Below, in pieces: positions 2-58,640 of a DNA stretch of 64,000 nucleotides. The position numbers and the translations under genes were made by a program. Source of the stretch: a virus; IMG/VR virus record IMGVR_UViG_3300048583_000222, positions 11,766 to 75,765 of that record; one strand, written 5' to 3'. The notes beneath the pieces were generated by a model that was given only the letters and a program-made list of their open reading frames with translations, made no database searches and had not been told where the DNA came from. Position 1 is the stretch's first letter. Each line of letters starts with the position of its first letter.

Positions 2-3000
2 GGAATTGTTAATTGTCTCTTTTTGTTGTTCAAGTGCTGATATGATCTTGTTTAGTTCTGCAGATAGCGACTTGGGCTTTTTGGGGTTACCTTGTGTAAG
101 TGCTTTAGGGTTAGCATGTACAATAATGTTCACACCCTCACGCTCTGTCTTGATCTGCAGTCTCTCTTCCAGTACCTTTGCTGCCTTGGCTGCTTCCACC
201 TCATTGCGGAATGTCCATGGACCAGGTGTACCGTCTGCTACTGTAGCGGATGCCGCAAGCAGCATGGAATTAGCCTGTAGGTTTACAGTCTTCGGATTGG
301 CAGGATGCAATATGTACAGGTGTTCCTTTGTACGGGATACGGCCGTGTACATACCATTCATCACTTCCTTATCGGAGAACTTGTGCTGAGCAGGACCGAT
401 GAAGTTGTACTCATGTACGAACACGTGGTTGTACGTGGAGCCCTGACTTTTATGGGACGTCACCGTATAGGCAGGTTCGATGTCCACAATAAGCTTGGAG
501 AGGGCTTCCATCATAGCTACGTACTTGGGATAGGCCAGAAAGTCTGCTCCTCCCGACATGCCACGCAGGTCCGCGGGAATGTTGAATCCCCCGTTTACGT
601 ACCGGTTCGGTTCGCCTTTGCGTTTATCACCTTCAATGCGGTTCTTGATCTCGTAGTACGTATCCTTGGTAATGCCTTGGGTTTCCACTACAATGTTCTC
701 CAGCTCACTGCCAAGGTCGAACTTGTAGTCAAATCCAGGCAGGTCGACTTTTACTGCAAACCATGGTTCGCCATCCCTGTCCAGTGCCACTGTGTCTTTG
801 GTTACGCGTCCGGGAACTACAGATTCCACAATGACACGCTGCATGTTGAAGAAGTCTGCCTTGGCCTCAAGTTCACCTAAGCGCTGAGCAGTTTCCGCAC
901 TGAGTCTTGTGGGTTCATGCGCACTGTTGAATATCGCAATGTCTCCTGCACTGATCTTGGTGCTAGTAGCGATTGCTTCGCCGAAGCGCTTGGTGCGTAC
1001 CATCAGGTTGAACTCTTCCCGTACCTTGTTGGTACTCACGATCATCAAGGCATTTTTCGGATTCTTCATGTCTTTGCTGAGCTCGTTCATGAAGCTGTTG
1101 AAGAAGTCTTCCCGGCTGCTGAGATAGCTTACATTCTCAGAACTTACCCTGTTAGGGAATGCCACTACCGGGAACTTATATGTACCAGTACCTGCCCGTA
1201 CACCGTCGATAGCGGCTCTGTACGCATTCAGTACGGTTACGACATCTGCTTTGTTGGTACGCATGTTCTGCGTCAGGGAGATGCCTGCCGTGTTGATGTA
1301 CTCCCGAAAAGGCAGCGAATCGTTGACCTGGCCTACGGGTGTAAGCTGTGCATAGTCTCCCATGAAGATGACCACCGCATTGTCTGGCGCATCTTGCTTC
1401 AGGTAGTTCATCAGTGTGTCATCGAGCATGGATGATTCGTCAACTACGATGATACTGCTGCTGCGAAGTGGCTTCTTGAACTTGCCACGTTTCTGCTCGA
1501 ACACGTCTGTACCTGTCTGCATGGACTTGATTGCATTGCGCTTAAGGTCCAGTTGCGCATGTATGGTGTCGACCTTTGCATTGGGCAAGGTCTCTTTTAC
1601 CTTTCCCAGGGCACTCTTCAGTTCCACAATAGCGTTGTGTGATGGAGCTGTGATCACCATCTTACGATCGGCAAACTCAGCCAGTACCTTGCGCAGGATA
1701 GTCGTCTTACCTGTACCACCCGCACCAGAGAGTACGAACACGCGCTGTTCGAATGGGATGTTCTCTCCTGCCATAAGCTTGCTGTCCACATCCCCGATGA
1801 ACGCTGGTATGCGGTCGATAGCCTCACGCTGCTTCTCATTGGCAAATACGCCCGGGAACAGTTCGTAGCGAGACATACCTACCTCTGGTTTATTTTCAGC
1901 AGGCTTCTTCCCAATCTTGGGGAATACGGGAGGTTGCCCTGGAATGATCGTATACTCGGTACCGTCCTCTATCCATGGTACGCTGTCCTCGTCTTCTTCG
2001 GGTTTACCGTAAAGACCCAGTACCTCGCTGATGGCTTTCTGACGCACCGGTTCTGGCATGCCATGCATGAAACTGTCGTGTACCTTGACTGCCACACCAT
2101 CGGCTCGTACACCTACGATTACATCTCGGTCGTTATATTCTACTGTACCGGCCGTGAGGATCTCGGTGACACCGCCCTGTTTCATCACGTGGATGATGTG
2201 CGGCAGCGCTTCTGCGAGTACAGAGTCGTGCTTGACGGGCTCTCCGATCATGTTGGCAATGTTGTTGAACAGGGTGTTCAGAAAATCCCACACTGCTTCC
2301 AGTACAGAGCGCTCTCCGTCATACTTCATGTCGTTGAGAATCTTCATGGTCTCGGCGTTCGTCGTCGCGTGTGCAACAAACTCGTGCGGACTGGATGCCC
2401 AGTACTCGCCTTCATGTCCCTTGCGTGCAAACTCCCAAAGCTTGACGATATGGCGTGCAGATTGCATGACAGGATCATTGTAGTCGAAGTGCTTTTCGAA
2501 AACGCTGGTACTCTCCCCTTTAGTCCTGCGATACGCAAACTCTATCATAGGTAGTGTAGCCCAGTGCATCAGCTCGTGTACAAAGGTCTCCTGAACCCCC
2601 GCAGCTGCGTCAGGTCGTAAAGATGCCCCCGGAGTAACTTGCTGAAGTATAATACTGTTCTCAGGCAGCAAGTAAGCCGGTCTGCCGGAAGCAAATCCGA
2701 TCTGCAGTCGTCCAGAACTGTTTGGTCCTCTGTTAGCGGAGGTCCTGTCATAGGTAATCTCCTCTATCAGGTCCTGGAATTCCTGGCTGCCGCTGAAGTT
2801 GTGCAACTCCGTGAGCAGGGTGTGGTACACGCCCGGGAGGGTACCGCTGTTGAGCATATGCGGGATGATGGTGTCGTTGATGTCCTCGACCTCAGATACT
2901 TCCTTGGTGATGCCCAGCACTTGGGTGTAGATCGGGTGCACATTGGAATTCTGCTCGATCTCCACCGGACGCTGCCCATTGGGGACCACAGTGTTGCCTT

Positions 3001-6000
3001 CACGAAGTACGGCCGGTGCCTGGTTATCTGCTACCTGCCAGTCCAGATTGAATGCACGGTTATCGGTCACGATGGAACGGTGAGTAGGTTCGGTGAGGTT
3101 GTACTCATCACTCATCCTGTTGCCAAGCGTGTCTATGCGCGCATACTGAATGCCCGCCTCTTCATTTTCCGTAAGCTTCTTGTACAGTACCACATCACCA
3201 CTCTCCGTACGATGGGAGATGTACGGTGTGAAGTACTTCTTGATGCCTATGGTTACGATATATTTCTGCTGCTCTGCTGTAGGCCCGAGGTCCGGATCAG
3301 GATACGGGAAAGAGAAGAACTCAGGTACCCCTTCATAGGTACGACCCGTTTCCTTGAATCCTGTATCTATGGAGATGGCTTTCTCGGGGTTGTGCCTGAA
3401 CCACTGCTCGGTGAACACCCCGCTACTCAGCATGGAGTCCATGTTATTCTGCGCAGACTGCAATACGTTGAACCAGTTGGTCGCAGCCAGGTATCCAAAG
3501 GGTACATAGCGTACAAAGCTTTGGGCATCCTGTACGCCTCCGGTGAGGAATGCATAGCGGACCAGATCTTCCCCCAGCATGCGTACATTCTTATCCGGAC
3601 TGAGCAACAGGTCCAGCCAGGCCCGTACGTTCTCGGCATCGTCCATCCGTGTTACCTTGGCGGCGATGAAGTTCACCGAATGCGGGTCAAGTCCGTTACC
3701 CAGATCTGTATGCAGACGAGAGAGGAAGAAGTTGTTCTTGCCCCAGCTCAGCTGCGCTTCTGCTACGCGCTCTGCCAGTGATGGTCCATTTTCAGTAGCG
3801 TAGTACAGTCGTGCGCGTTCGGCAGTGATGTCTTCCACGCCCAGTGCCTGTCGTACGGCTTCGCTGTATACATAGGAACGTATGCCCTTCATCACGCTCT
3901 TCTGAATCTCCTCACTGATCTGGGTCATCGATTTACGATTCGTGTAGGACTTGATATGGGTCAGTGTGTGCAGGTACACTTGGCTATGCGGCAGGTAATT
4001 GTCGAATAGGGATAGTGCCAGTGAGTTCACGGTATCGAACAGGAATCCTTTCTCTCCACTTAGCAGGTCATTACCCCCGAGGATGACATCAGGTCCCAGT
4101 ACGATCCCTGCTTTCTCATCCTTGTCAATGACCTTGAACAAGCTGCCATCAGTACCCTTCACGTCTTGTGTGGTCAGTGCAGCCATCTCACTCATTCTTG
4201 TACCCACTGCATGGAATTCCTGGAATGCCCTGAGGATATCGCGTTGTGCCAGATAGTACTCACGCGTGTTCTTTGGCTTGTTGGCCATGTCAAGCAACTC
4301 TTTGGCGGTATATGCCTTGGCTTGTACCGGCTCTCCTTCTCCGATCTTCTTGCTAATCTCAGTGTAGAGCTGGTCGAATACGGACTGCTCGAGGTTAGGT
4401 ACATATCCGCTCAGCATATCCTGTCCGCGTTCCATCAGCAGATTGAATTGCCTGATGATGGGTTGGGACAACATGCGACTCACATAGGTGGTATTGACTG
4501 CTTTGCCTTCCTCAGTCTCGAGAGAAAGGATACCTGCAGCAGCCGGGTAAGTGTGCACAGTCAGGTTAATTTTATCGATCGTACGGTGCTTGGCGTGGTC
4601 AAGGAACTCCTGCAGCATAATGTTGATGTTGTCCATCTTCGTACGAGTCTCTGGAATTCCACTGGCGGGTACATAGACTGAAGTACCATAGCCAGACAGA
4701 TTCACCAATGATATCACACCGTCTTCGTCTTTGAAGATTTCAATAGGCGTTGGTATTTCTACCATCTCCTTGGTTTCTTCATTGTACTCCATAGTACCCA
4801 ACTTGAGGTCAAGGTGCTGGATGGTGGCGAGAAACTGATTGGTCTGTGCACCAAAGCCTACCAGGCTCTTGGCATCTTTCTGTGAAATGAAATCAGCCAA
4901 CTGACTGCTGGCCCCAAAGAAGTTACCCACGGCAGATGGTTTGGCCAGTTTCTTGGCTTCATCCTTAAGGTCAGGCTTGTCCAGCGGACTCATCATGACC
5001 GGGTACACGGAAGCTGCAGTGAGTATCTTGAAGTGCAGGTCAAAGTACTCCGCCATGATGCCGTCTGTCGCGGAAGCTGCTTTGTCGGTTATGGTATAGG
5101 GGCGACGATAGACGAAGAGTTTATCTACGTCAAAGTCAGACCCCATCTGTGTCGTGATGCCGGGAGGTACGATGATGGCGTCTCCCATATTATCAGGCAG
5201 AAAGCCGACGATCTTCATCGGGAGCATCGTGTTGTGCTTCGAAGTCGGGATACGGATACCAACCATCTCGAGTACTTCCAGGGGAAGCCTGGACATGTCC
5301 AGTGTACCATCCTCCAGCAGGAACTCGGTGATGACCATCTTCTGCCCGTCTTGGAAGAAGTGGAAGGGCACCAGTATCTCGGCCGGGGTCACCGTACCAT
5401 CTTCATTGAGTACAGGCATGCGCAACTCACGGGAGCCGTCATAGCCAGGTACCCAGGTTATTCCTGCGGTGGCGCCCAGTCCGGTGAGCATCCGGGTGAT
5501 ACCTACTGACGAGGCCTGTACGTATGACTTGCCCGGTACCTTGGTCTTCACCACGCCATCGATCATGCTCATCATGAGGTTGTGCAGTGGATCGGACAGT
5601 GAGGTGAAGAACAGTGGTGATATGGGACGGCCGTCTACCAGATGGGTGAGCGGAGCGAGTTCATTCTCTGAATAGCTTTTCTTCTTGCCCTCATCAATGA
5701 GACGCTTGATGAACTTGGCCGGATTGCGGAACCTGAACTTACCCTCGATCGCTTCGATGTCCAGTTCCTCTTTGAACTCCTCGATGTTCTCCTGTACCAT
5801 TTGGATACGAAGCGCTTCTTTTTTCTCCCGGATGTTGTCCCTGTTGTAGGTCTGCCCATCCATCAGCGTTACACTGAAGTTCTCAGGCAGGTCAGATACA
5901 ATAAGCTTGTTGGCCTGTGAGAAGATCTGGATCATGTCCTTGTTACGATCATAAGGTACTTCCTGCTGGATGCGGAATCCTTCGCGACTCAGGCGCTGTA

Positions 6001-9000
6001 CCGGCGCGAATTCTATGCTGTTGTAGTTGCCGTTCTTACCAAATGCCTGGAAGGGTTTGCCTGCACCGATCTTCTTGGCGGATATGAATTGTGCCCGGCG
6101 AATGCCGCGCTTCTCCATGTCCTTTCTCAGCTTATCCAGTTCTGTGCCGGCAGTGAAGCCAGCGTACAGTGGGATAGCAGAACTCTTCACGTAGTCATGC
6201 AACAGGGCACCGCGATCCACATTGGGACGCTTGCCATAGTACACGGGCTTGGTGATCTGCAGGGCAATGCGCTCGTGCCCTGCTCTGGTAAACTTTGCGA
6301 AGTTCGGGTCACGTACCAGTGCGATCATTTCATTGTACGTATCCTCGGCGAGCATGCCGAAGCGGAACATCACATCCAGATGCTCTTCCATGGTGACAAA
6401 TTCCTGTGCATCCGTTACGTTCACATCTTTGTATGCAGGTATGCCCTTGATGTAATCCAGCGCTACCGTGTAATCATCCAGTACAATGATATCATAGTAC
6501 ATCTGCTCGGCAGTCCACTCGGTTTCTTTTCCCGGAGCGATGGGGCCGGCCAAACGTTTCTCGTACTCGATGAGGGTGTCAGCTACTGACTTCTTGTACA
6601 CTTGTGCCGGGTCTCCGTACAGGAGCTGAGCCATGGATGTGTTGACCAGGAATGCGTTCATCGCGTAGTTCATCGCCACGAATTCAGAGAGTGCTTTGAG
6701 GTACGTTGGACGATCCACCCGTCGCTTATCGACTATGTACACATCCTTGCGTGACACGCTGATCCCGGCTTGGGTATTGGCTACCTCTTTGATGTAGCGC
6801 TCATTGAACAAGTGTTTGCCAGTAGTCATGTCGACCATGCCGGCTTCGTTGAACTTGCGCAGCTGTATGGCGGTCTCTTCTGTAATAAACTCGTTGAGCA
6901 TTCGCTTCACCAGCTTGTCGAAAGCTTCTGTTCCTTTTCCAGGTGCATTGATGACACCGTCGCTGATCCATATGGTGCCCAGTTCCTCTTCAGTGATTTC
7001 TCCGGCATCCCTTCTCGCCTTCATGTTGGCGTAGTTGAACTGCGGCATCATGAAGAAAAACTTCTTACCCTGCTCGTACTGCTGATGGTCATCGTATATG
7101 TGTTCAGCACTGTTGGCGATCCTGTCGAATTCACTTTCAAACACGCTGTACAGTCTTTCCATCAGTACCAGTGAAGGCTTTCCTACAGCACCGGTCGGTG
7201 TACGCGGGATGTTCATGAACACTGGTGTACGGGACTTGTCCGAGTGTGTAAGGCTCACGTAGTGGGACGATTCCCATCCATTGTTCATGTACATACCCAA
7301 GGCCATGAAGAGCTGGTCACGATCCGACATGTCAGTCCGCTCAGAGGCCGCTTTTCCCTTCATTTTCTTCAATCCCTCCAAATACAGCAGGTCGGCTTTC
7401 CTTCTGCTGGATGGATCATTCTCCCATACCTGCAGCAGCCAGTTGTTTCTGGCAAAGTCCGTATTTTTCAGCTGCTCTCTGTACACTCCTGACTCATCGA
7501 CCAGGTCCAGGAAAGCATTGCTGAGGTAACTGTTCAGGATGTAGTCCCACACATTGTTCCCGGCAAGGTCACGGTGCGAGCTGTTGTATAGCATGTCAGC
7601 ATGTCGTACGTAGATGCGACTGAGCATGTTCATGGTAGTATTCTCGGAGTACAGTGGATTGTTCTTCTCCAGCGTATTTTCAATGCCCTCCTCATCTTTT
7701 GTATTGAGCAGTTTAAGCAGGAACATGGAGAAGATACCATTACCTCCCCCGTCTTTTTTCTCAGACCACTCTTTGATTAGCATTTCCTCCCCAGACTTGT
7801 ACAGGGTCTCGTACATTATAGGTGTGAGCATGATGCCGTTGTACTCAAACATCTTGGTGACCAGCTCCTTGGCTGCCTTGAAATAGATACTCCGCAGTTT
7901 TGCAGCTCCTGGTCCTTTAGCTCCTTCTATCCTGCGCTGGTTCTTTGCTTTCAGCTCCTCATAGTCTGCCTTCAGTTCATCTACCTTAGCAGGGTCAATG
8001 ATATAGTAACCAGACTCTGTACGCTTCACCATAGGAGAACGCTTCTGGGCTTGCTTCCAGTTTTCCAGAACAAGCTTGCGGGCGGAGTATATGTTGGCAT
8101 TGATCGTACGTATCTCTGCGTTGTCGTCCCAGAGTTTGTACTGGATCAGTGCGTACTGTGTGTAGGACTTGGTCATCACGGTGACGAATTCCCGGCGAAT
8201 CTGTTCTGGGGTGGTGGAACTCTTCAAGCGCTGAGCCAGCTTGCGCAGGACAGGACTTCCGGATTCCAGTATTTCCATGTACTTGTCGAAGGAAGGTTTC
8301 GTGTTGGCGAGCATACCCGTGACGTTATCGTATAGGTTCTCCAGTTCAGCAAGGGTAGGGGTACCAATAAAAGAGGGTATGTTGACCAGACCACGCTCCT
8401 CTACAAACGGTACGATCTCCAGCAGCACATCGCCTTCCTTGGCTTCGTGTTTCTCCGCAGCGATCGCTGTGCCATCCGGACCAGTGCGCATGAAGTCCAG
8501 GTTCTCACGCTGATCACCTTCATTGTATTCCTTGGCTTCCTGTGCCGTCATGGGTTTTACTGGGCGAACCACATACCACGTGTCTCCAAGCTTGATGCTC
8601 CCGGAGTCCCCGGGTTTCAGGGAAAGGCCGATGTCGGCGAGCTGTTTTGGCGTGCGGACCGAGTACTTGCGGGTACCGTCAAGGATCTGCTGTATGTACA
8701 CATGCCCCAGCGGCAAGCCGATCACCTTGGGCTTGAGCAGAGGTCCTTCTTCCACATTCTCAGTAGCTGCTATGTAGAGCTTCAACCTGCCCGATGCCGT
8801 AGCTTTTGGGTCCAGGGTGAAGATCAGGTCATTGAAGTTCTCAATCGCCTTGGCTTCCGTGGATACAAGCTCGCCGTCAGTGAGCTGGTCTGTAGCCCCG
8901 TTGCTATCCAGTTCGTTGACCTTGATGCCATAGATGGCCAGACGACGAATGGTAGCCTTCATCAAATATTTCAGGGAGTACAATACATCCTCCATGTTGC

Positions 9001-11671
9001 GTGCATAGGTAGCACCCATCTCCGGAGTGATATGGGTATAATGCGCAGTACCCTTGACCATGACTGCCTTACCTGCGGCACGCGTCTGGTAGATACGCAG
9101 CAGCAACTTGAAGCGCTCCTCTATAGTGTCCTTCAGGGTCTTCACGTCGACACGTTTGCTTTTATTGACTTCCTGTGCGGTAAGGTAGATGATCGAGTCT
9201 GTAGCCTGTGTCTGCTGGAACTGATCAAAGAATCTTCCGCTCTTGCTGCCATCGGCATTGCGAATCTCTACAAACTGCTCGGCCCGGGCTTTGCGCAGCA
9301 GTTGCTCATCGATGCTTAAGGGTTCCCGTAGGGTTTGATCCTGCAGTACCATGTCAGAGGCAATGAACCTCACGGCCAGGTTGTCCATCAGTCCCCTGAA
9401 TCTTTTCTCAAATATGATGTTGTCCGGGATGGGCCCGGCTTTGACAAACATGTTGGCCATTTCCTTGGCGCTGAATCCGCTCAGCATCCTGTCATGGGAG
9501 GTGTACCCAATCAGGAATTGCATGGTGGGGTTCTCCATCGCGGTTTGGTACAGGGTACGCATGTTCTCGATCACGCGTTCATCAGGCATCCGGTTACCGG
9601 CATTCTTACCACCAAGCTTTCCTTCTACGGTGACCAATGGGTATGACTTTCCTTCTGTACCGGTGGATATCTTGGAGTGCTCCCCGAGTACTACCCACTT
9701 ACCCTTGGTACCTCGTACACTGGGGAATTCCTTGGGAGTATACTCTCTGCCTGCGGCAACTGCTGCTGCGCCTGCTCCGTGAAGTCCCTGGTTGTTGGCG
9801 CCGAAGACGAACACTTGGTTCTCACCCAACGCAGTAACCAGGCCTTCGTAGGTACTGTTCTTTACCACGGTCTCTCCTATTGCCGCATCCTTTGCAGAAG
9901 AAGGAGTCATGCCGGTTGTAAATACATTCTGAGTGTGCTCGTATACATTCTTAATAGCAACCTCTCCTGACGGCGTTAGCTCTCGTGTACCTATACCTGC
10001 AAAGTTCTTGGTAAGTGTAGGAGTACCTTGCCATACGAACTTGTTACCATCCCACTTGAACCACTGCCCTTTTTCCTGGTCGAATACATTGACAGGTTTG
10101 CCAGCATCGATAGCCATTTGGACAGCCCAGCCTGTTCCTCCTTTTACTTCTGTGAGAGAAGTCAATTTCCCAATAGCAAATACTGCATCACTGTTCTTAA
10201 CCTGCATCCAGTTACGGGCCAGAAGATCCATATACTTCTCAGGCTTTCTTTTCAAGGTCTGATTAGCCAGCATCACTTTTTCCTTTCCCTCTGCAAAATC
10301 AGCATCGTTTACCTCATCCTCTGGTTTGGACAAGGGGTTTAGGGTCCCATGCCAATAATGCTTGTGATTAGTTACTCCAAAGGTTCGTCCAATCCGATCC
10401 CATGCTGTGTCAGATCCTTTTGCACCGCCAGAGTGATTAGTTAGTGCAGCCATTTCTGTAACAGGATCCGCAGCCATGCCCAGTACAATGGCATCTGGTA
10501 AGCTGTCCCAGGCGTTCATCCATTCCGCTAAATACTTGGATTCTGCAAGGCTTTCATTTAATATGTTGGTAGCAGCTGCAAATGCTTCTGTATATAAGGT
10601 AGGGTTCTCCTTGTTAATGTTCATTGCATTAAGCAGGAAGTCCATAATCTGTTGTAGGAGATTATCGTATTTACGGCCATCCATAGCTGGCAATTCCTGC
10701 AATTTCTTGATAAGTGTTCCATTGGTAAACAGGGCAACAAAGAACTCATCTTCATTGTACATACCATAGATACCTTCCTTAGTAGCAGGGAGATATCCTC
10801 CCAAGTGCTTTTTCGCATACTGATACAGCTCTCTGAAGTCAGAGCTAATTTCAACATTATCCTGCAATTTGCGCCATGACAGGGCATGTAGAATCTCGTG
10901 GATTAGAATTTGATCCATACGTGCACCGGAGTTTCTGGCTATCACGATTTCGTTTGCTGACGGGTCATATATACCAATAGCTTGTATCGGACTGTTACCC
11001 ATACGATTAGCACTGATAACAGCTGAATCTTGCGTTGTGATCTCTATATTGTTGACCTCTGAAAATTGCAGTAGGTGCTCTGCAATGGTAGCAAAGCCGA
11101 TGTTACTATCTGCAATGCGTTGCAGTACATCTGACACTTTGTTAGGCCCATCCTTTGTTACGTACTCTTCCAGTGTGAGGGTTTTGCTACCATCTGCTTT
11201 AGACACTACAGCTCCTGCTGCTTCAGGTCTGGGTCGGATCTCTATACGTGCAGTAACGGGATTGTACACAATCAGCAACTTCTTGTACAGTGGTCCGGAG
11301 ACTTCGGTAAGTTGCTTATCCAGTGCCTTGGCCAGTTTTCGATTGCCTTCGTACTCAAAGAGGCGCCCGGGGATCCGCTTAAGTCCCCCATTCCAGTTCT
11401 CCACCAGCTTCATGTGCTGGGCTACATGGGACACACTTCCCAGTCCAAGTACCTGCAGCGCAGCGTCAAGTGTGGGCTCACCCTGAAGGGTACGCGGGAT
11501 TCGTACGTTCTTGTTCCGAACATCTGTCCAGTCACCGGTCTTTCGCAGGTATTCTACACTGCGTAACATGTACCAGGCTTGTGTTGCGATCTGCTCTCCC
11601 ATTAACTGAGAAAGCCCCGCGAACAGCATTGAAGGTTGACTGTTGGGGGCTTCGAAATTACATTGTAACAT
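2..11671 (-). CDS. Giant virion RNA polymerase polyprotein (>3,890 aa, 3' end beyond window); order N to C: zincin, SLOG, macro-like, RNAP core, zincin, Dda/RecD-like helicase
   Basis: ATG at 11671, 3 nt after the stop of the upstream ORF. Manual translation of many segments and of the window edge is open in one frame, and the ORF track lists no terminated ORF in this frame. Catalytic motif QMGSDFDVDKLF (DFDVDK at 5120-5137) is preceded by GIRIPTS and by YGDPA..YKK..KRLAGPIAPG, as in crAss-like vRNAPs. Also HEILH (10886-10900), HELMH (2564-2578) and GAGGTGKTT (1700-1726). Confidence 0.92.
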   Translation of the reverse strand, partial: MLQCNFEAPNSQPSMLFAGLSQLMGEQIATQAWYMLRSVEYLRKTGDWTDVRNKNVRIPRTLQGEPTLDAALQVLGLGSVSHVAQHMKLVENWNGGLKRIPGRLFEYEGNRKLAKALDKQLTEVSGPLYKKLLIVYNPVTARIEIRPRPEAAGAVVSKADGSKTLTLEEYVTKDGPNKVSDVLQRIADSNIGFATIAEHLLQFSEVNNIEITTQDSAVISANRMGNSPIQAIGIYDPSANEIVIARNSGARMDQILIHEILHALSWRKLQDNVEISSDFRELYQYAKKHLGGYLPATKEGIYGMYNEDEFFVALFTNGTLIKKLQELPAMDGRKYDNLLQQIMDFLLNAMNINKENPTLYTEAFAAATNILNESLAESKYLAEWMNAWDSLPDAIVLGMAADPVTEMAALTNHSGGAKGSDTAWDRIGRTFGVTNHKHYWHGTLNPLSKPEDEVNDADFAEGKEKVMLANQTLKRKPEKYMDLLARNWMQVKNSDAVFAIGKLTSLTEVKGGTGWAVQMAIDAGKPVNVFDQEKGQWFKWDGNKFVWQGTPTLTKNFAGIGTRELTPSGEVAIKNVYEHTQNVFTTGMTPSSAKDAAIGETVVKNSTYEGLVTALGENQVFVFGANNQGLHGAGAAAVAAGREYTPKEFPSVRGTKGKWVVLGEHSKISTGTEGKSYPLVTVEGKLGGKNAGNRMPDERVIENMRTLYQTAMENPTMQFLIGYTSHDRMLSGFSAKEMANMFVKAGPIPDNIIFEKRFRGLMDNLAVRFIASDMVLQDQTLREPLSIDEQLLRKARAEQFVEIRNADGSKSGRFFDQFQQTQATDSIIYLTAQEVNKSKRVDVKTLKDTIEERFKLLLRIYQTRAAGKAVMVKGTAHYTHITPEMGATYARNMEDVLYSLKYLMKATIRRLAIYGIKVNELDSNGATDQLTDGELVSTEAKAIENFNDLIFTLDPKATASGRLKLYIAATENVEEGPLLKPKVIGLPLGHVYIQQILDGTRKYSVRTPKQLADIGLSLKPGDSGSIKLGDTWYVVRPVKPMTAQEAKEYNEGDQRENLDFMRTGPDGTAIAAEKHEAKEGDVLLEIVPFVEERGLVNIPSFIGTPTLAELENLYDNVTGMLANTKPSFDKYMEILESGSPVLRKLAQRLKSSTTPEQIRREFVTVMTKSYTQYALIQYKLWDDNAEIRTINANIYSARKLVLENWKQAQKRSPMVKRTESGYYIIDPAKVDELKADYEELKAKNQRRIEGAKGPGAAKLRSIYFKAAKELVTKMFEYNGIMLTPIMYETLYKSGEEMLIKEWSEKKDGGGNGIFSMFLLKLLNTKDEEGIENTLEKNNPLYSENTTMNMLSRIYVRHADMLYNSSHRDLAGNNVWDYILNSYLSNAFLDLVDESGVYREQLKNTDFARNNWLLQVWENDPSSRRKADLLYLEGLKKMKGKAASERTDMSDRDQLFMALGMYMNNGWESSHYVSLTHSDKSRTPVFMNIPRTPTGAVGKPSLVLMERLYSVFESEFDRIANSAEHIYDDHQQYEQGKKFFFMMPQFNYANMKARRDAGEITEEELGTIWISDGVINAPGKGTEAFDKLVKRMLNEFITEETAIQLRKFNEAGMVDMTTGKHLFNERYIKEVANTQAGISVSRKDVYIVDKRRVDRPTYLKALSEFVAMNYAMNAFLVNTSMAQLLYGDPAQVYKKSVADTLIEYEKRLAGPIAPGKETEWTAEQMYYDIIVLDDYTVALDYIKGIPAYKDVNVTDAQEFVTMEEHLDVMFRFGMLAEDTYNEMIALVRDPNFAKFTRAGHERIALQITKPVYYGKRPNVDRGALLHDYVKSSAIPLYAGFTAGTELDKLRKDMEKRGIRRAQFISAKKIGAGKPFQAFGKNGNYNSIEFAPVQRLSREGFRIQQEVPYDRNKDMIQIFSQANKLIVSDLPENFSVTLMDGQTYNRDNIREKKEALRIQMVQENIEEFKEELDIEAIEGKFRFRNPAKFIKRLIDEGKKKSYSENELAPLTHLVDGRPISPLFFTSLSDPLHNLMMSMIDGVVKTKVPGKSYVQASSVGITRMLTGLGATAGITWVPGYDGSRELRMPVLNEDGTVTPAEILVPFHFFQDGQKMVITEFLLEDGTLDMSRLPLEVLEMVGIRIPTSKHNTMLPMKIVGFLPDNMGDAIIVPPGITTQMGSDFDVDKLFVYRRPYTITDKAASATDGIMAEYFDLHFKILTAASVYPVMMSPLDKPDLKDEAKKLAKPSAVGNFFGASSQLADFISQKDAKSLVGFGAQTNQFLATIQHLDLKLGTMEYNEETKEMVEIPTPIEIFKDEDGVISLVNLSGYGTSVYVPASGIPETRTKMDNINIMLQEFLDHAKHRTIDKINLTVHTYPAAAGILSLETEEGKAVNTTYVSRMLSQPIIRQFNLLMERGQDMLSGYVPNLEQSVFDQLYTEISKKIGEGEPVQAKAYTAKELLDMANKPKNTREYYLAQRDILRAFQEFHAVGTRMSEMAALTTQDVKGTDGSLFKVIDKDEKAGIVLGPDVILGGNDLLSGEKGFLFDTVNSLALSLFDNYLPHSQVYLHTLTHIKSYTNRKSMTQISEEIQKSVMKGIRSYVYSEAVRQALGVEDITAERARLYYATENGPSLAERVAEAQLSWGKNNFFLSRLHTDLGNGLDPHSVNFIAAKVTRMDDAENVRAWLDLLLSPDKNVRMLGEDLVRYAFLTGGVQDAQSFVRYVPFGYLAATNWFNVLQSAQNNMDSMLSSGVFTEQWFRHNPEKAISIDTGFKETGRTYEGVPEFFSFPYPDPDLGPTAEQQKYIVTIGIKKYFTPYISHRTESGDVVLYKKLTENEEAGIQYARIDTLGNRMSDEYNLTEPTHRSIVTDNRAFNLDWQVADNQAPAVLREGNTVVPNGQRPVEIEQNSNVHPIYTQVLGITKEVSEVEDINDTIIPHMLNSGTLPGVYHTLLTELHNFSGSQEFQDLIEEITYDRTSANRGPNSSGRLQIGFASGRPAYLLPENSIILQQVTPGASLRPDAAAGVQETFVHELMHWATLPMIEFAYRRTKGESTSVFEKHFDYNDPVMQSARHIVKLWEFARKGHEGEYWASSPHEFVAHATTNAETMKILNDMKYDGERSVLEAVWDFLNTLFNNIANMIGEPVKHDSVLAEALPHIIHVMKQGGVTEILTAGTVEYNDRDVIVGVRADGVAVKVHDSFMHGMPEPVRQKAISEVLGLYGKPEEDEDSVPWIEDGTEYTIIPGQPPVFPKIGKKPAENKPEVGMSRYELFPGVFANEKQREAIDRIPAFIGDVDSKLMAGENIPFEQRVFVLSGAGGTGKTTILRKVLAEFADRKMVITAPSHNAIVELKSALGKVKETLPNAKVDTIHAQLDLKRNAIKSMQTGTDVFEQKRGKFKKPLRSSSIIVVDESSMLDDTLMNYLKQDAPDNAVVIFMGDYAQLTPVGQVNDSLPFREYINTAGISLTQNMRTNKADVVTVLNAYRAAIDGVRAGTGTYKFPVVAFPNRVSSENVSYLSSREDFFNSFMNELSKDMKNPKNALMIVSTNKVREEFNLMVRTKRFGEAIATSTKISAGDIAIFNSAHEPTRLSAETAQRLGELEAKADFFNMQRVIVESVVPGRVTKDTVALDRDGEPWFAVKVDLPGFDYKFDLGSELENIVVETQGITKDTYYEIKNRIEGDKRKGEPNRYVNGGFNIPADLRGMSGGADFLAYPKYVAMMEALSKLIVDIEPAYTVTSHKSQGSTYNHVFVHEYNFIGPAQHKFSDKEVMNGMYTAVSRTKEHLYILHPANPKTVNLQANSMLLAASATVADGTPGPWTFRNEVEAAKAAKVLEERLQIKTEREGVNIIVHANPKALTQGNPKKPKSLSAELNKIISALEQQKETINNS

Positions 11672-11674
11672 ACG

Positions 11675-14600
11675 TTATCCGCATTTAAGGAATGGATTGT
11701 GTCCATCAGCCAGATATGGAATATTTGCTTTGATCATTTCTCTGTAGACCTGATCAGGCGTTTTCCCATTCCGTACCTCAGACGGTGTGAAGGTATATAA
11801 ATCCTTCAATATCTTCATGGACAAAGGCTGCATATCTGCACTAGGCACGATGGAAGTTACGGTATGCCCTACAAGATCAATATTGGAGTTCAACTCCATG
11901 CCCAGCATCTCATTGGCAGCGTCCAGATCATCGGCACTGAACTCCTCCGAATCGGAGGTAGTGGGGGTGGTTACCTCAGGTATAAGGGTAGCCGTGACTG
12001 TCTGATCTTCCTTGAGTATAACAGTAGCGTCATCGAAGAAAGTGATCATCGGATTGGCAGCGTACACATACTTACCGGCAAGTTGGTTGCGCCCATCTAC
12101 GTATGTGGTGGCGTGAGATTTCACGTAAGCATTGTAGTTAGCATGCTTGTGCACCTTCCACCCACTGGTCTGGTATAGTACTTCCTGGAACTTCTGGTTG
12201 TTATTGATACCCATTACCTCATCCTTGGTGTAGTTCACGTTCCGGTACCGGGTAGCCAGCCCTGCTCTTAAAGCTTCTACGAATTCAGGAGATAGCTCCT
12301 TGTTGCGCAGGTTGGCTACAATGGGCTGCTGTCCTGAATTGGCAAAGCCGATCATGACTGTGGCCAGTCCAGTGGACGGGTCGGTGACATTAAACAGGAA
12401 GTTATTGTTATCCGCCTCTGGGTTATGTGCCGTGTGGGAGGCGTCAAAAGACTGCAGGTAAGTGTACTGCTGGGTGATGAACCGACGCAGGTGCGCAGCA
12501 TTGCCAAAATCGTAACCCGTACGGGCGAAGACATCTTTCAACTCTGCCTGTACATCCGCATCCTTGCTCTTCAGGTACAGCCAGATGGCCCGCTCTACAG
12601 TACGCAGGTCGAGCTCATTCTCCAGCTTGTCCATGTACAATGGAGATACGGTGACAGACCCATTGGCCATGGGGAGCACTACTACAGGGGCATTGTGCCA
12701 TCTGTCCAGTTCGTCTATCGTGTTGTTCACCTCGATTGGGTTGTTCCGAGCTGTGTTGACCACGGTCTGGTTGATCACCGCCAGAGAGAGTGTGGTATCG
12801 GGGAGCATGTCTGTTGCCGGCATGCGGGTGTACTTGGGCTTCTCTCCCGTGTTGTCCACGTGGAGGATTACCCTACCTGGGCCCTTGGCTTCTATGGTGA
12901 GTTGTACAGTACCGGCTTCAGAGATCAGCCTGCGCAGCTTACTCAAGCGCTCTTGTTGTATGGCAAGGTTGTCGATGATTGTACCGTCCTCCAGTTCGAT
13001 GGTCTCTACGATGTTGCGCATGCGCTCGGGACCGCCTGTTCCCGGGAATTGCTCCATCATCCAGTCCCCTGTAGCCAGATATCCGATTACGGTACCCCGC
13101 TCATCTACCAGACGTATGGGTACATTCATATGGTCAGTCACCTTACCATCAGGGTCCGTGAAATCGGAGAAGCTGATGTCCTGCAACTTGTTGGCATGCC
13201 CATGTACCTTACCCTTGCCCTGATAGTTCTTGTCCAGTTCCGCGGTGACCTTAGTACCAGGCTTCAGCTGGGTGGGATCGAGGATAGCTGGATTGAGATT
13301 TGGGTTGAGTCCAACACCTGCTATGCGGTAGTTCCCCTTATCATCGGTGTAGTCCACCGGGTTCAGGGTAGTGGTGTTCACTTTCAGCATACTTACTGCC
13401 TTGGCTTCGTAGTGGGACTTATCCTTACCAACCACAACATCCGGAGCATTGTCCGTCTCGGGTTGTTCAGGGTCTGTCACTACAGGGCCATGGGTAACCT
13501 CAGTCTCGGTCTTCTCAGGTTTCCCTGTCTTGGTACCCTCATCTGTATGGGTCTCCCCGGGAGTTTCCTGATCATCCTGCACGGTAGGCAGACTCTTGAT
13601 GTACTTGCGCAGGGCAGTCAGTGTGTCCATCACCTCATCAGAGAATATAAAGAACAATCCATCATCCAGTGCCTGCTGTGTTTCTGGCAAGTTGCGGAAG
13701 TCTATGTCGGGCAGATTCGGGTCCCGCTTCAGTGCTTCTTCGAATGCGGCAAAGGCAGAATGGGCCTCCGCAGGAATATTCTCCTCCAGTACTTTCAGGT
13801 ACTCAGCCTGCTCTTTGATCAGTACATCGATCTCGTCTTCCACCGGTGCTTCTGGAATAGGTACCGGAGGTGGCGTAACAGTCTGACTGGCAGCCAGTGC
13901 TTTCTCCACATCTGACTTTACAATCTGCTTTCCGTTACGACCAGTAGGTACAATGGTGTTGATGTCCAGTCCATTGAGCTCCGCCAGGGCACGTGCTGCA
14001 GGTGTGATACTCACCCCAGTTTTCGCAGCAGGTTTTCTGGTCTTAGGAGCCGGTGCCGTCCCTGGCGGTGGTACTGTACTTGTAGCTGCTTGTGCCGCCT
14101 GAGCTGCTTGCTCATTGGTTTCCTGCTGTGCGAGTATTTCAGCAGAGTTAAGCTTGAGGGCATCGTGCAACGCAAGTTCTTTTTGTTGTAGGTCATTGAG
14201 TGCAGATTTAAGGTTACTCAAATCGTACTTGTGCTTGAGCATCTTGGTCTTCCAGTTCAGGTTCCACATGGAATGTTCTGTCAGCTTCAATGCATTGATC
14301 TTCTGTATCACAGCAGTTATCCTGTCTTTGATTTGTACGATCTCCTTTTGGGTGGCGTCGAGTTCAACCTCGAGTTTCTGCTTGTGTTTATCCAGACTGG
14401 TCTTGTTGCGCTCTACATGAGCAGCTGCTGCATTGCGGGTAACCTGTGCCTGTAAAGCCACTTTACGATCTTCCTCAATCATCTTCTTACGCTGCTCGTC
14501 AATGGGCCCTTTGATCTTCTTCAGCAGCTTCTTCACGTTGTTGGAATCACTCATGATGTCGTTCAGGTTGGCCTGATTAGCCTGAATCCTTGAACGAAGT

Positions 14601-16915
14601 TCCTCCAGCGAGGCCTTGTACGCAACGAGGTCAGACTTCTTACCGTACTTGGTTGCGAGAAACTTGACATAGTCCTGCAGAGAAGTATTGGGATTCTCTT
14701 TAAGATACTCCTGGTATCCTGCACTGTTAAGCAGATCTTCTGCCTTCTTCTGCATGGTCTTCTTGGAAGATTCAATCTGAGAGTCCATCATTTTCTGCAG
14801 TGCCTTGATCGTAGCCTCAGGTCCGATGTGCCCTACCATCTTGTACTTCTCGAGTATCTGATCTATGGTCTTTGCATCCTTATTCGTGATGGCATCATTG
14901 AACTTCTGTACGTCACTGCTGATGCGGTCTACAATCTTCTGATGCATGTCAATCTCCTCCTGTGCCCTGTTGGCGCCCGCATGCCATACGTCCGCATCAT
15001 AGGATGAATTGCCGTACACTTCATCGTACTCTTCTTCTGCTTTCGCAATCTCAGCATCTCCCTTCTGGAGTAACCGCTTCTGACGGTACACTGTTGCTGA
15101 TTGCTGGAACAGGTAATCTGCCACACCGAGCGTCTGCTCCTCAGGAGTAGTGAACTTGGCGTAGATAGTATCGTGCAGCTTTTGATAGTGCTTGATGTCT
15201 TCGATAGCTTCCTTGGCGCGCTGCTTATAGGAGTTGTCGTCGATATTGCTTGCCAGTCCTTTCTTCATGGCTTCACTCTCCTTGCTTTCTTCCTGCAAGA
15301 TGAGGGCCTCTTTCTGGCGCTGCAGCTCTTCCCGTACGACAGGATCTTCTGTCTCGCGCATCTGTAGGTTCAGCTCATCCAGCTGGGCCGCGGTATCGGT
15401 CTGTGGTACGGTATTGTCCGTGCTGGCAATCTCTTCGAAGGTAGAGATCCAGTTCTCTCCCATACCTACCTGCACGGCATTGAGCGCCAGTACATCGAAG
15501 AGCTGCATGCGAATGCGCTCCATGCCCACCTCGTCTCCAGCTGCCTTGGCTTGCGCCAGTTCCGCCATCTTCTTTTCCTTCCAGTCAAAGTCAGCAGCCA
15601 CAGCTTTCACCAGGCTGTCGAAATAACGTCGCGTACCATCTGCTTGGAGTGTACGGGAACTGACCAGCTTAGTCTCGCGTTTACCATCCATGGGTACATT
15701 CTCATCTACTATCTGCCTGTGCATAGGTATGTTATCCATGATCGCTGTCTGAGCCACACCTCCGAACGCACCAAGGATGAAGTTGAGGGCACCTTCTTGA
15801 TTGGTGACATCACTTAAGGCCCTGTCAAATGAAGTCAGAGATTCCACCAAGTTCTTCTTCTGCCCTTCTCCTACACGCTTACCTTCCGCTTCCGCGTACT
15901 GGGTGTTGATCTCTTCCAGACCTTCCTGTAGTGACTCACTGCCATAGGATGTGATGCCCGAACGGAGCTTTGAAGGAGCTACTTCCTCATAGGCCTTACG
16001 CATCCGTACAGCGAAATCATCTGCCGACTCTCCAGCCATAGGTTTGCCATTCTGCTTCATGAACTGCAATGCCTTATCCTCCGCGTTGCGGAACATGGGT
16101 GCCAGGGCAGTCATGTTCAGGGCCGTGTTCATAATCGTATTCATCTGTACAGTAGTGGATGCCGCATCAGCTGCTATCGTCTTGGCTTGGTTAGCGGCTA
16201 CATTGGGGTCCAGCCCTGACTCTACAAGTTTCCTGTATTGCGCGTTGTAGGCATCCTCGTACACCCGGTAACCACTCATAGCCCCTTCCATGTATGCCAG
16301 TGAGCTGGCCGTGGCAGCGCGCGCTGCAACACTGGCAATCTGCCCCGTGGTACGTCCTGCTGTTGCTGCAAGTTTGGCTAGCGACATGAATCCTTTACCG
16401 ATAAGAGCCCCTGGCAGCGCGAACTGCGAGGCACTTTCAACAAGTCCCCCAATATGAGTGATCCACCAGGCGGAGTCTGTCAAGTCAAAAGTCTGCTCAG
16501 GGTTTTCCAGGTACACTTCTCCAAATGGGTTCTTAGCGGACTTCATCAACTCAGTCAGCTCATTGCTATAGTCTTTGTCCTTGCCCCACTCCCCCACCAA
16601 TGATCCAATATATCCTGTCATCTCTCCTATACCGGTGATGATGTTGAATGGAAGATTAGCCAGTTGTATACCTGCACTTTCCCAGCCTCCCTGATCTTGA
16701 GCACGCAGCTTATTATTATCCGCATTGCTTTTCAGTTGGAATCTATAGTCGTTCTGATCTTCTCCTTGTGTGATGTCTCCACCATATTTGGGATCTACAG
16801 GAGTAGCATGCTGTTGTGCAAGAAGATTCCCGAGCCTGGACTTTCCTTTGCCGGGAGGTTCTTCCAGATTAGATGTACTATGAGTATTGTTGAGAACCTG
16901 TTTGAGATCTGGCAT
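11675..16915 (-). CDS. Large virion cargo/ejection protein (1,746 aa) with internal E3-binding (PSBD)-like domain
   Basis: Long ORF directly upstream of the vRNAP, as in crAss-like phages; coiled-coil-rich, with a hydrophobic Gly/Ala segment near the N-terminus; PSBD-like motif at about 13892-14017. Confidence 0.75.
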   Translation of the reverse strand: MPDLKQVLNNTHSTSNLEEPPGKGKSRLGNLLAQQHATPVDPKYGGDITQGEDQNDYRFQLKSNADNNKLRAQDQGGWESAGIQLANLPFNIITGIGEMTGYIGSLVGEWGKDKDYSNELTELMKSAKNPFGEVYLENPEQTFDLTDSAWWITHIGGLVESASQFALPGALIGKGFMSLAKLAATAGRTTGQIASVAARAATASSLAYMEGAMSGYRVYEDAYNAQYRKLVESGLDPNVAANQAKTIAADAASTTVQMNTIMNTALNMTALAPMFRNAEDKALQFMKQNGKPMAGESADDFAVRMRKAYEEVAPSKLRSGITSYGSESLQEGLEEINTQYAEAEGKRVGEGQKKNLVESLTSFDRALSDVTNQEGALNFILGAFGGVAQTAIMDNIPMHRQIVDENVPMDGKRETKLVSSRTLQADGTRRYFDSLVKAVAADFDWKEKKMAELAQAKAAGDEVGMERIRMQLFDVLALNAVQVGMGENWISTFEEIASTDNTVPQTDTAAQLDELNLQMRETEDPVVREELQRQKEALILQEESKESEAMKKGLASNIDDNSYKQRAKEAIEDIKHYQKLHDTIYAKFTTPEEQTLGVADYLFQQSATVYRQKRLLQKGDAEIAKAEEEYDEVYGNSSYDADVWHAGANRAQEEIDMHQKIVDRISSDVQKFNDAITNKDAKTIDQILEKYKMVGHIGPEATIKALQKMMDSQIESSKKTMQKKAEDLLNSAGYQEYLKENPNTSLQDYVKFLATKYGKKSDLVAYKASLEELRSRIQANQANLNDIMSDSNNVKKLLKKIKGPIDEQRKKMIEEDRKVALQAQVTRNAAAAHVERNKTSLDKHKQKLEVELDATQKEIVQIKDRITAVIQKINALKLTEHSMWNLNWKTKMLKHKYDLSNLKSALNDLQQKELALHDALKLNSAEILAQQETNEQAAQAAQAATSTVPPPGTAPAPKTRKPAAKTGVSITPAARALAELNGLDINTIVPTGRNGKQIVKSDVEKALAASQTVTPPPVPIPEAPVEDEIDVLIKEQAEYLKVLEENIPAEAHSAFAAFEEALKRDPNLPDIDFRNLPETQQALDDGLFFIFSDEVMDTLTALRKYIKSLPTVQDDQETPGETHTDEGTKTGKPEKTETEVTHGPVVTDPEQPETDNAPDVVVGKDKSHYEAKAVSMLKVNTTTLNPVDYTDDKGNYRIAGVGLNPNLNPAILDPTQLKPGTKVTAELDKNYQGKGKVHGHANKLQDISFSDFTDPDGKVTDHMNVPIRLVDERGTVIGYLATGDWMMEQFPGTGGPERMRNIVETIELEDGTIIDNLAIQQERLSKLRRLISEAGTVQLTIEAKGPGRVILHVDNTGEKPKYTRMPATDMLPDTTLSLAVINQTVVNTARNNPIEVNNTIDELDRWHNAPVVVLPMANGSVTVSPLYMDKLENELDLRTVERAIWLYLKSKDADVQAELKDVFARTGYDFGNAAHLRRFITQQYTYLQSFDASHTAHNPEADNNNFLFNVTDPSTGLATVMIGFANSGQQPIVANLRNKELSPEFVEALRAGLATRYRNVNYTKDEVMGINNNQKFQEVLYQTSGWKVHKHANYNAYVKSHATTYVDGRNQLAGKYVYAANPMITFFDDATVILKEDQTVTATLIPEVTTPTTSDSEEFSADDLDAANEMLGMELNSNIDLVGHTVTSIVPSADMQPLSMKILKDLYTFTPSEVRNGKTPDQVYREMIKANIPYLADGHNPFLKCG

Positions 16916-58202: not shown

Positions 58203-58640
58203 ATGTTACAACACGAAGAAAGATTTCACGACGACGTGAAGCTCGTATTGGTTTACAGTCTGCTGACCCGCTCCATGCTGAAAGTACTGCAACGCAGTGT
58301 AATCGGAAAAGCCAGTCACAAGACCCTAACTGATGCGGCCTTCTCATGGTTCTCGCAGATCAGACAGAAAGAACTGCTGTTCACTGACACACTCCCCGCG
58401 GTAAAGGAATTCGTAATGGATAACCTGCCCAAGAAGGACGAGCTGGAAAGTGACATGCTGGACTCCATCGCCGAGATGAGTCTCTACATCATCATGCATG
58501 CTAAGGACAAGAATTTGCATGAAACTATTACTCACGTTACCAATCCATCGTACAGGAAGTGTGAACTCCGCAAGGCCTGGCAGGCCGGCGCAGGACTCAT
58601 GGCCTTTGAGGACTGGTACAAAGACAATCACGAACAATGA
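58203..58640 (+). CDS. Hypothetical protein
   Basis: 145-aa ORF; ATGA overlap with the helicase. Confidence 0.55.
   Translation: MLQHEERFHDDVKLVLVYSLLTRSMLKVLQRSVIGKASHKTLTDAAFSWFSQIRQKELLFTDTLPAVKEFVMDNLPKKDELESDMLDSIAEMSLYIIMHAKDKNLHETITHVTNPSYRKCELRKAWQAGAGLMAFEDWYKDNHEQ

Follow-up and report, generated by a model that had tools for sequence, protein, structure and literature searches.

The human gut virome is dominated by crAss-like phages, which are also widespread in the environment, and barely anything is known of how they start an infection. In Cellulophaga phage phi14:2, the genes g067, g066, and g065 follow one another in this order, with g066 encoding the RNA polymerase (RNAP) gp66; the phi14:2 record annotates all three from tandem mass spectrometry (MS/MS) proteomics and explicitly calls g067 a virion structural protein. 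The RNAP-associated cargo proteins gp47, gp49, and gp50 of PhiCrAss001 have been detected in virions (PMC10172136). Polyvalent virion RNA polymerases (vRNAPs) were described by Iyer et al. in 2017 for N4-like phages only, in a paper that does not mention crAss-like phages (PMC5512222), and Thermus phage P23-45 encodes gp96, a 5,002-residue tape-measure protein with an N-terminal two-barrel virion RNAP, for which the authors propose transcription coupled to DNA translocation (bioRxiv 10.1101/2022.12.01.518664). Both multidomain giants among the crAss RNAPs and polyvalent vRNAPs of the N4 type have already been published. Here we analyze a 64,000-nucleotide stretch of viral DNA (the window; C1:11766-75765 of the 95,727-bp IMG/VR virus record IMGVR_UViG_3300048583_000222, which is rated complete) whose left end carries part of a minus-strand gene for a 4,951-aa protein. 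We observed a single open reading frame (ORF), domains that can be identified at the level of sequence or fold, the fusion of a gp66-type polymerase to a g065-like partner, and the swapping of modules among relatives. Our best reading, to which we give a probability of roughly 0.7, is a polyvalent vRNAP fusion that would be delivered by the virion; its packaging, its cleavage, and the activities of its modules are what we infer.

The protein resembles known polyvalent proteins in that many unrelated enzymatic domains share one very large chain encoded among virion genes, and also in its zincin-type metallopeptidase, its shuffled domains, the use of a polymerase as a module, and the presence of ART-PolyVal in close relatives (PMC5512222). 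It differs from the N4-like vRNAP with an MPTase zincin in that the polymerase is T7-like there and of an unrelated crAss/QDE-1 type here, and the N4-type architectures as described include neither the SLOG-macro pair nor a g065-like ejection-type partner (PMC5512222). The locus may represent a crAss vRNAP turned into a scaffold for interchangeable early-acting enzymes, in what looks like convergence with the unrelated N4 polymerase on the polyvalent-protein strategy. P23-45 gp96, compared here by its description, is also a giant chain joining a two-barrel virion RNAP to a genome-delivery protein, but its partner is a siphovirus tape measure whereas ours is a podovirus-type, g065-like protein, and gp96 carries none of the accessory enzymes found here.

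One uninterrupted giant gene

When edge-truncated frames were allowed, ORF listing of all six frames returned a single minus-strand ORF of 3,890 aa at window positions 2..11671, stop-free to the window edge. An earlier note, made from the letters of the window, had proposed exactly such a frame open from position 11671, and no in-frame stop divides it into separate genes. The default listing of the same span contains just nine plus-strand shadow ORFs of 150-380 aa; the giant gene was missing from the supplied ORF track because the default listing omits edge-truncated ORFs. In the whole genome, the frame runs on the minus strand from C1:23436 down to C1:8581 and encodes 4,951 aa, so that the gene extends 3,183 nt past the left window edge and residues 1-3890 fall within the window. 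The gene is therefore larger than the part described in the earlier note (more than 3,890 aa), and the note's string of domains lacked a C-terminal domain of ~1,070 aa that lies mostly beyond the window.

Relatives were sought in a protein collection, which yielded 54 other giants of 2,861-6,185 aa; together with the studied protein they form a census of 55, for which modules were counted by combining a BLAST coverage map with a hidden Markov model (HMM) census. The relative P0005 (4,648 aa) is 48% identical over 92% coverage, and P0010 (5,350 aa) is 30% identical over 88%. Since independent relatives align across nearly the entire length, the giant ORF is one real gene and no chimera. An assembly artefact, that is, a mis-assembled contig or neighboring genes that are stop-free by accident and are not translated as a single gene, is extremely improbable. 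What could speak for it is that the genome comes from a metagenomic assembly, that the gene lies partly outside the window, and that its start codon is ambiguous: the first ATG lies 3 nt past the stop of the upstream 1,746-aa gene (window 11629-11671), translation may start at Met1 or Met15, and the same gene is called from Met15, as a 4,937-aa protein, in a public protein collection. These points are outweighed by the chance of encountering 4,951 stop-free codons at 49% GC, which is ~1e-107, by independently assembled relatives in which the parts follow in the same order, with identities of 30-70% along as much as 92% of the length, and by conserved linkers that join the domain boundaries, with stops in none of the relatives.

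The features of the gene and its product are as follows (window coordinates, strand, description, and basis).

2..11671 (genome C1:8581-23436), minus strand: giant ORF, residues 1-3890 in the window; ORF listing and public gene call
11222..11671, minus strand: N-terminal segment, residues 1-150, common to some giant relatives and small stand-alone proteins
10514..11200, minus strand: putative zincin-1, gluzincin-type, residues 158-386, with HEILH at residues 258-262 (10886-10900); motif, AlphaFold2 (AF2) model, and Foldseek
9926..10474, minus strand: SLOG-fold Rossmannoid domain, residues 400-582; PHROG, AF2, and 3imk match
9362..9862, minus strand: predicted macro-fold domain, residues 604-770; phrog_2072 and macrodomain fold matches
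7637..9334, minus strand: conserved backbone region N-terminal to the polymerase, residues 780-1345; present in 32/55 giants
3083..7639, minus strand: predicted two-barrel virion RNA polymerase, residues 1345-2863, with DFDVD at residues 2179-2183 (5123-5137); gp66 homology
2129..2704, minus strand: putative zincin-2, ~residues 2990-3181, with HELMH at residues 3032-3036 (2564-2578); motif, PDB profile matches, and hhalign
272..1840, minus strand: superfamily 1B (SF1B) Dda/RecD-like helicase, residues 3278-3800, with Walker A at residues 3316-3324 (1700-1726); Pfam, PHROG, and PDB
2..16 with the rest beyond the window, minus strand: start of the ~1,070-aa C-terminal domain, residues 3886-4951; hhalign to g065 and cr111_1 gp034

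At least seven recognizable modules share the one ORF, fitting the polyvalent criterion of two to fifteen unrelated domains. The chain consists of a variable N-terminal head (N-terminal segment, zincin-1, SLOG-fold, and macro-fold domains), a conserved core (~570 residues followed by a gp66-type two-barrel DNA-dependent RNA polymerase), and a g065 homolog (zincin-2 plus the ~1,070-aa C-terminal domain) into which an SF1B helicase is inserted. HMM, profile-profile, or fold evidence recovered the series zincin, SLOG, macro-like, RNAP, zincin, helicase in the very order given by the earlier note. The polyvalent architecture that it recognized therefore holds, but it overlooked the fused g065-like protein in the last ~2,000 residues and the paralogy of the zincins.

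Polymerase core and g065-like partner

The polymerase region retrieved PDB 6vr4, the structure of phi14:2 gp66, with a phmmer E-value of 4.1e-34. The catalytic motif DFDVD aligns with DFDID of gp66 within a strongly conserved stretch, and a D[FYW]DxD motif lies near the same mapped position in 53 of the 54 relatives. Profiles of the relatives are colinear with gp66 residues 511-2104 (hhalign probabilities of 98.4, 100, and 99.2). By these criteria, the enzyme is a crAss-type, QDE-1-like polymerase of the phi14:2 gp66 type, for which the two-barrel fold is predicted from the solved gp66. An N4/T7-like polymerase was also considered and was rejected, as gp66 was the sole PDB polymerase match. 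The stretch that precedes the polymerase (residues 780-1345) is conserved in close relatives, but it could not be matched to the N-terminus of gp66 (residues 1-510) and found no usable match in the ESM Atlas.

The last ~1,070 residues were compared with crAss-like proteins at the profile level, because homology to g065 is detectable by profile-profile comparison and is beyond the reach of phmmer. The C-terminal profile matched cr111_1 gp034, a third "RNA-polymerase subunit", with an hhalign probability of 99.6 and phi14:2 g065 with a probability of 97.6, compared to 0.2 for the control g067. The zincin profiles in turn matched g065 residues 158-340, around an HEIMH motif at residue 245, with probabilities of 97.2-97.3. 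Taken together, the two sets of matches show that g065 combines a zincin with the C-terminal domain, and that residues ~2900-4951 of the giant protein are a g065 homolog joined to the polymerase and interrupted by the helicase, which lies between its zincin and its C-terminal domain. A hydropathy scan found a single strongly hydrophobic helix in the C-terminal domain (residues 4828-4846). For this domain the ESM Atlas gave a lead to LPD38 and LPD39, which Pfam scans of 32 members did not bear out.

The likeness to phi14:2 extends from the colinear polymerase with its aligned DxDxD motif to the homologs of the g065 zincin and C-terminal domain, which follow the polymerase in the same order, and to the place of the genes, which close the block of structural and cargo genes. 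The differences are that a single ORF is found here, with a helicase inserted into the g065-like part, a core identity of ~25%, and an N-terminal extension of ~1,340 residues before the polymerase, whereas the N-terminal 510 residues of gp66 have no detectable counterpart. Where phi14:2 has g067, g066, and g065, the present genome has a 1,746-aa gene and then the fusion.

The two zincins of the giant protein were compared with each other and with known peptidases. An alignment of 23 zincin-2 sequences shows no variation in the E and the second H of HExxH or in a downstream E within an EF motif, and almost none in the first H; the same motif set is equally conserved in an alignment of 60 zincin-1 sequences, with HExxH followed by a downstream E. 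When the profile of one zincin was aligned with that of the other, hhalign gave a probability of 98.4 (E 5e-15), so that the two zincins are paralogs belonging to one HExxH...E family. Among 1.84 billion representatives, 279 relatives of zincin-1 were found, and most of these lie within multidomain proteins of 1,000-6,300 aa, at any position. The fold was modeled for zincin-1 alone (AF2; predicted local distance difference test score, pLDDT, of 87.6), and the top Foldseek matches of this model are all zinc metallopeptidases, namely M34-type catalytic domains, the Pro-Pro endopeptidases PPEP-1, -2, and -3, and ArdC, with probabilities of up to 0.99, yet a weak E-value of 3.5e-3. Curated peptidase models in Pfam were matched below threshold only, by SprT-like at 16 bits (cut-off 25.6) and DUF6782 at 16 bits (cut-off 27).

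Searched against the PDB, the zincin-2 profile matched an internal virion protein (9sfn_G, E 9e-12) and gp48 of phage PhiM1 (8vb2_A, E 4e-9), and more weakly the minigluzincin projannalysin (E 3.5e-3). PhiM1 gp48 is a tetrameric ejection protein of a Pectobacterium phage (PMC11440229); it appears to contain the same HExxH...E domain, but the gp48 paper does not describe this domain as a peptidase, zincin, or metallo- domain (PMC11440229). Zincin-2 came with the g065-like partner and was not added as cargo. As an observation on phi14:2 itself, g065, annotated as "RNA polymerase associated protein" (L004 12998-17263), contains the HEIMH at residue 245 as an unannotated HExxH zincin, homologous to domains of the solved ejection proteins PhiM1 gp48 and the internal virion protein. 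A conserved zincin shared with solved podophage ejection proteins would give the "RNAP-associated" proteins of crAss-like phages a testable role.

A conserved and apparently active HExxH...E zincin lies on each side of the polymerase. This speaks for the main rival to our reading, in which the protein is a polyprotein precursor and its own zincins cut the chain at capsid maturation or right after ejection. Cleavage would set free a polymerase like gp66, an ejection protein like g065, a helicase, and small effectors, and the fusion would serve as a device for expression and co-packaging rather than as a working 550-kDa machine. Consistent with this, the same parts are separate genes in phi14:2 and cr111_1, and autoproteolysis by MPTase domains has been proposed for polyvalent proteins by Iyer et al. 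(PMC5512222). However, the MPTase-bearing vRNAP of N4 is reported to enter the virion without being processed (PMC5512222), and cleavage sites are not identifiable from the sequence. We regard processing of this kind as possible but unlikely; it is compatible with delivery by injection and differs from our best explanation just in the final state of the chain.

Accessory domains and their exchange among relatives

Pfam scans of the whole protein and of nine segments recognized the helicase alone, where AAA_19 (67.9 bits), AAA_30 (66.4 bits), and UvrD_C_2 (32.7 bits) each exceeded the cut-off. The helicase matched the PHROG Dda-like family with an E-value of 8e-57 as well as RecD and Dda chains in the PDB, and its translation contains a complete set of SF1 motifs (Walker A, DESS, GDxxQLxPV, SHKSQGST, and VSRT). 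The embedded domain is therefore intact and belongs to the SF1B helicases of the Dda/RecD-like type. The replication block encodes a second SF1 helicase, a separate protein of 488 aa (window 58637-60103, plus strand); the two are alike just around the motifs and are distantly related. The possibility that the embedded helicase is the only SF1 helicase of the phage was accordingly rejected, and the embedded copy is an extra one.

Residues 400-790 were folded with AF2 from a 105-row alignment (pLDDT 87). The SLOG part of the model (model residues 1-183) matched 3imk, a "molybdenum carrier", with a VIA-align Z of 12.8 and a root-mean-square deviation (rmsd) of 3.4 over 138 of 158 residues, and the domain matched PHROG 768 ("DprA-like") with an E-value of 6.5e-10. 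Members of the SLOG family gave sub-threshold Pfam matches to cpYpsA (14), DprA (9), LDcluster4 (2), and the related Nuc_deoxyrib_tr (15), and the SLOG profile produced no alignment with the bona fide cpYpsA segment of P0050 (probability 0.3). The macro part (model residues 205-370) matched macrodomains with Z-scores of 9-10.9 and rmsd values of 3.2-4.0 over 127-151 residues, covering most of each target (TTHA0132, alphavirus nsP3, macroH2A, TARG1, and YmdB), and the domain matches phrog_2072. In Pfam, residues 590-800 matched no family at E-values up to 1; since the models left unmatched include those for Macro, the modeled domain is best termed macro-like. Profiles made from the SLOG, macro, and C-terminal alignments retrieved nothing meaningful among PDB sequences.

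SLOG-Macro-NADAR fusions of phages have been described and are predicted to process ADP-ribose-derived immune signals (Iyer et al., 2022, PMC9503650). The present protein shares with them the combination of SLOG and macro, but Macro, NADAR, and SLOG domains of viruses usually form proteins of their own (PMC9503650), while here they are embedded in a vRNAP. The same pair occurs in swapped order in 32 of 120 smaller homologs, mostly stand-alone proteins of ~315 aa. One such 315-aa macro-SLOG protein (L008 8001-8948) is encoded in a 326-kb contig of many small co-directional genes, which looks like a jumbo phage.

The earlier note had suggested comparing domain content across related phages, and the census indeed found modules to be swapped among the 54 other giants. 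The distribution of the main modules is as follows.

RNAP core: 55/55 giants, constant position
Zincin-2: 41/55 giants, after the polymerase
g065-like C-terminal domain: 37/55 giants, C-terminal
SLOG: 16/55 giants, N-terminal, C-terminal, or within the RNAP core (P0011 and P0052)
Helicase: 10/55 giants (13 by precomputed Pfam), at the junction it occupies here or, in distant relatives, close to the C-terminus
Extra zincin copy: 3/55 giants, variable position

Pfam scans revealed further modules. The head of P0010 combines NADAR, SLOG, an AlkB-like 2OG-Fe(II) oxygenase, and macro, and the heads of P0006 and P0013 contain ART-PolyVal, for which the studied protein has no Pfam match. Distant relatives carry either helicase, DUF7831, DUF1848, SLOG, and NADAR or cpYpsA and helicase in their tails. 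This shuffling of domains among homologs matches the definition of polyvalent proteins. In P0011 (residues 1877-2060) and P0052 (residues 3178-3361), the SLOG domain splits the HMM match to the RNAP core, which looks like a domain insertion into the polymerase itself.

The placement of these modules bears on a second alternative, namely that the add-ons serve transcription and genome entry in cis rather than counter-defense. The helicase would then act on the template by melting or translocating it, the zincins would target the envelope or the assembly of the ejectosome, and SLOG and macro would bind nucleotides or process RNA ends (for example, NAD/ADP-ribose-linked caps or 2'/1''-phosphate products). 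Such roles would be in keeping with a macro-like domain that is fixed beside the core in the close clade, with the SLOG domains inside the cores of P0011 and P0052, with a zincin common to the ejectosome proteins of unrelated podophages, and with reported SLOG-SF1 helicase fusions in which SLOG was suggested to be the regulator (Iyer et al., 2022, PMC9503650). On the other hand, relatives swap in or add the typical conflict modules ART-PolyVal, NADAR, and AlkB-like oxygenase, many relatives function without helicase or SLOG, and the genome already has the separate SF1 helicase of its replication block. We consider service in cis rather unlikely as the explanation for the add-ons; it overlaps, as does the precursor, with our best explanation.

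Possible delivery and roles, and gene neighborhood

Genes for the large terminase (TerL), portal, and major capsid protein (MCP) lie upstream of the giant gene on the same strand, and the giant gene closes this minus-strand block of TerL, portal, MCP, tail, and cargo genes. The cargo block (window 2-25647; genome C1:5158-32432; minus strand) is marked by a near-absence of cysteine. The giant protein has a single cysteine in 4,951 aa, at residue 4 and thus upstream of Met15, and five consecutive genes of the block (674, 4,951, 1,746, 709, and 539 aa) together encode 2 cysteines in 8,619 residues, compared to a background of 0.69% genome-wide and 1.09% in plus-strand genes. The 54 giant relatives average 0.07% cysteine, and phi14:2 g065, g066, and g067 have 1-2 cysteines each. 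Such depletion fits unfolded passage through the tail and an oxidizing compartment, and near-absence of cysteine may be a general, simple sequence marker for ejected proteins. The earlier note had proposed that the RNAP doubles as a carrier delivering other enzymes at injection. The proteomics annotation and virion detection of its homologs, the position of the gene, and the scarcity of cysteine are consistent with this proposal, in which delivery itself is argued by homology.

On this reading of a virion-delivered fusion, the giant protein would be made late and packed in the capsid, like gp66, g065, and the RNAP-associated cargo of PhiCrAss001, and would be pushed into the host ahead of or together with the DNA, after which the polymerase would transcribe the early genes. 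Because the add-on enzymes share a chain with the polymerase, they would reach the site of entry before any phage gene is expressed. Judging from the domain families, the task of the helicase is probably to open incoming DNA for the polymerase or to translocate it. ADP-ribose-derived molecules or adducts that host defenses make are probably what the SLOG-macro pair binds or degrades, and the zincins probably cut the chain, or host or envelope targets, after ejection. The SLOG, macro, zincin, and helicase modules may have a role in counter-defense or host takeover, and SLOG-macro, NADAR, AlkB-like, ART, and helicase domains constitute a list of candidates for countering NAD/ADP-ribose-based immunity in Bacteroidota.

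Several points weigh against the polyvalent, virion-delivered fusion. The polymerase core shares just ~25% identity with its closest characterized homolog. Pfam thresholds are not reached by the SLOG, macro, zincin, and C-terminal parts, and the Foldseek E-values are weak (2e-3 to 4e-3), so that these parts are assigned from VIA Z-scores, conserved motifs, and profile-profile matches. The macro-like domain may be a backbone element instead of swappable cargo, because its place in the close clade is fixed, immediately N-terminal to the core, and 16 further relatives have partial matches to it, and zincin-2 may belong to an ejectosome as a structural or envelope-acting component instead of being a processing protease. 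Finally, virion packaging and early transcription are extrapolated from homologs, and the chain may or may not stay intact.

A more speculative extension, which we put forward tentatively and hold to be rather improbable, is that the protein works as a one-chain machine for initiating infection. An ejectosome-type protein, a helicase, and a vRNAP would then couple genome entry, template opening, and first transcription, while the ADP-ribose enzymes would shield the entering DNA from NAD-derived defenses. The zincin and a membrane-touching C-terminal domain would form the ejectosome-type part, and, on equally slender odds, the coupling would be mechanical and take place at the channel. If this were true, the RNAP-associated proteins of crAss-like phages would be their long-sought ejectosome, and the vRNAP its evolvable cargo rack. 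In the literature that we covered, which did not include the gp66 paper or Yutin et al. (2018), so that an earlier description is possible, we found no description of a gp66-g065 fusion, of a zincin link between g065-like and ejectosome proteins, or of SLOG, macro, NADAR, and ART modules on crAss-type polymerases.

The source of the window was assessed from its terminase and polymerase. The terminase is ~30% identical to Crassvirales terminases, with nearly all named matches coming from crAss-like phages, and the polymerase region retrieves chiefly crAss-like phages, with phi14:2 gp66 as the best match at 25% identity. These matches point to a deep-branching, uncultured crAss-like phage; a megablast search of the region against a phage collection gave no match. 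When the neighboring cargo proteins were compared by phmmer with phi14:2 g065-g070, gp66 was the sole match. The upstream 1,746-aa gene (window 11675-16915, minus strand) has no PHROG match and no phmmer match to g067, whose position it holds. On the other side of the giant gene, ~1.4 kb (genome C1:7183-8580) separates its stop from the next ORF of at least 300 aa.

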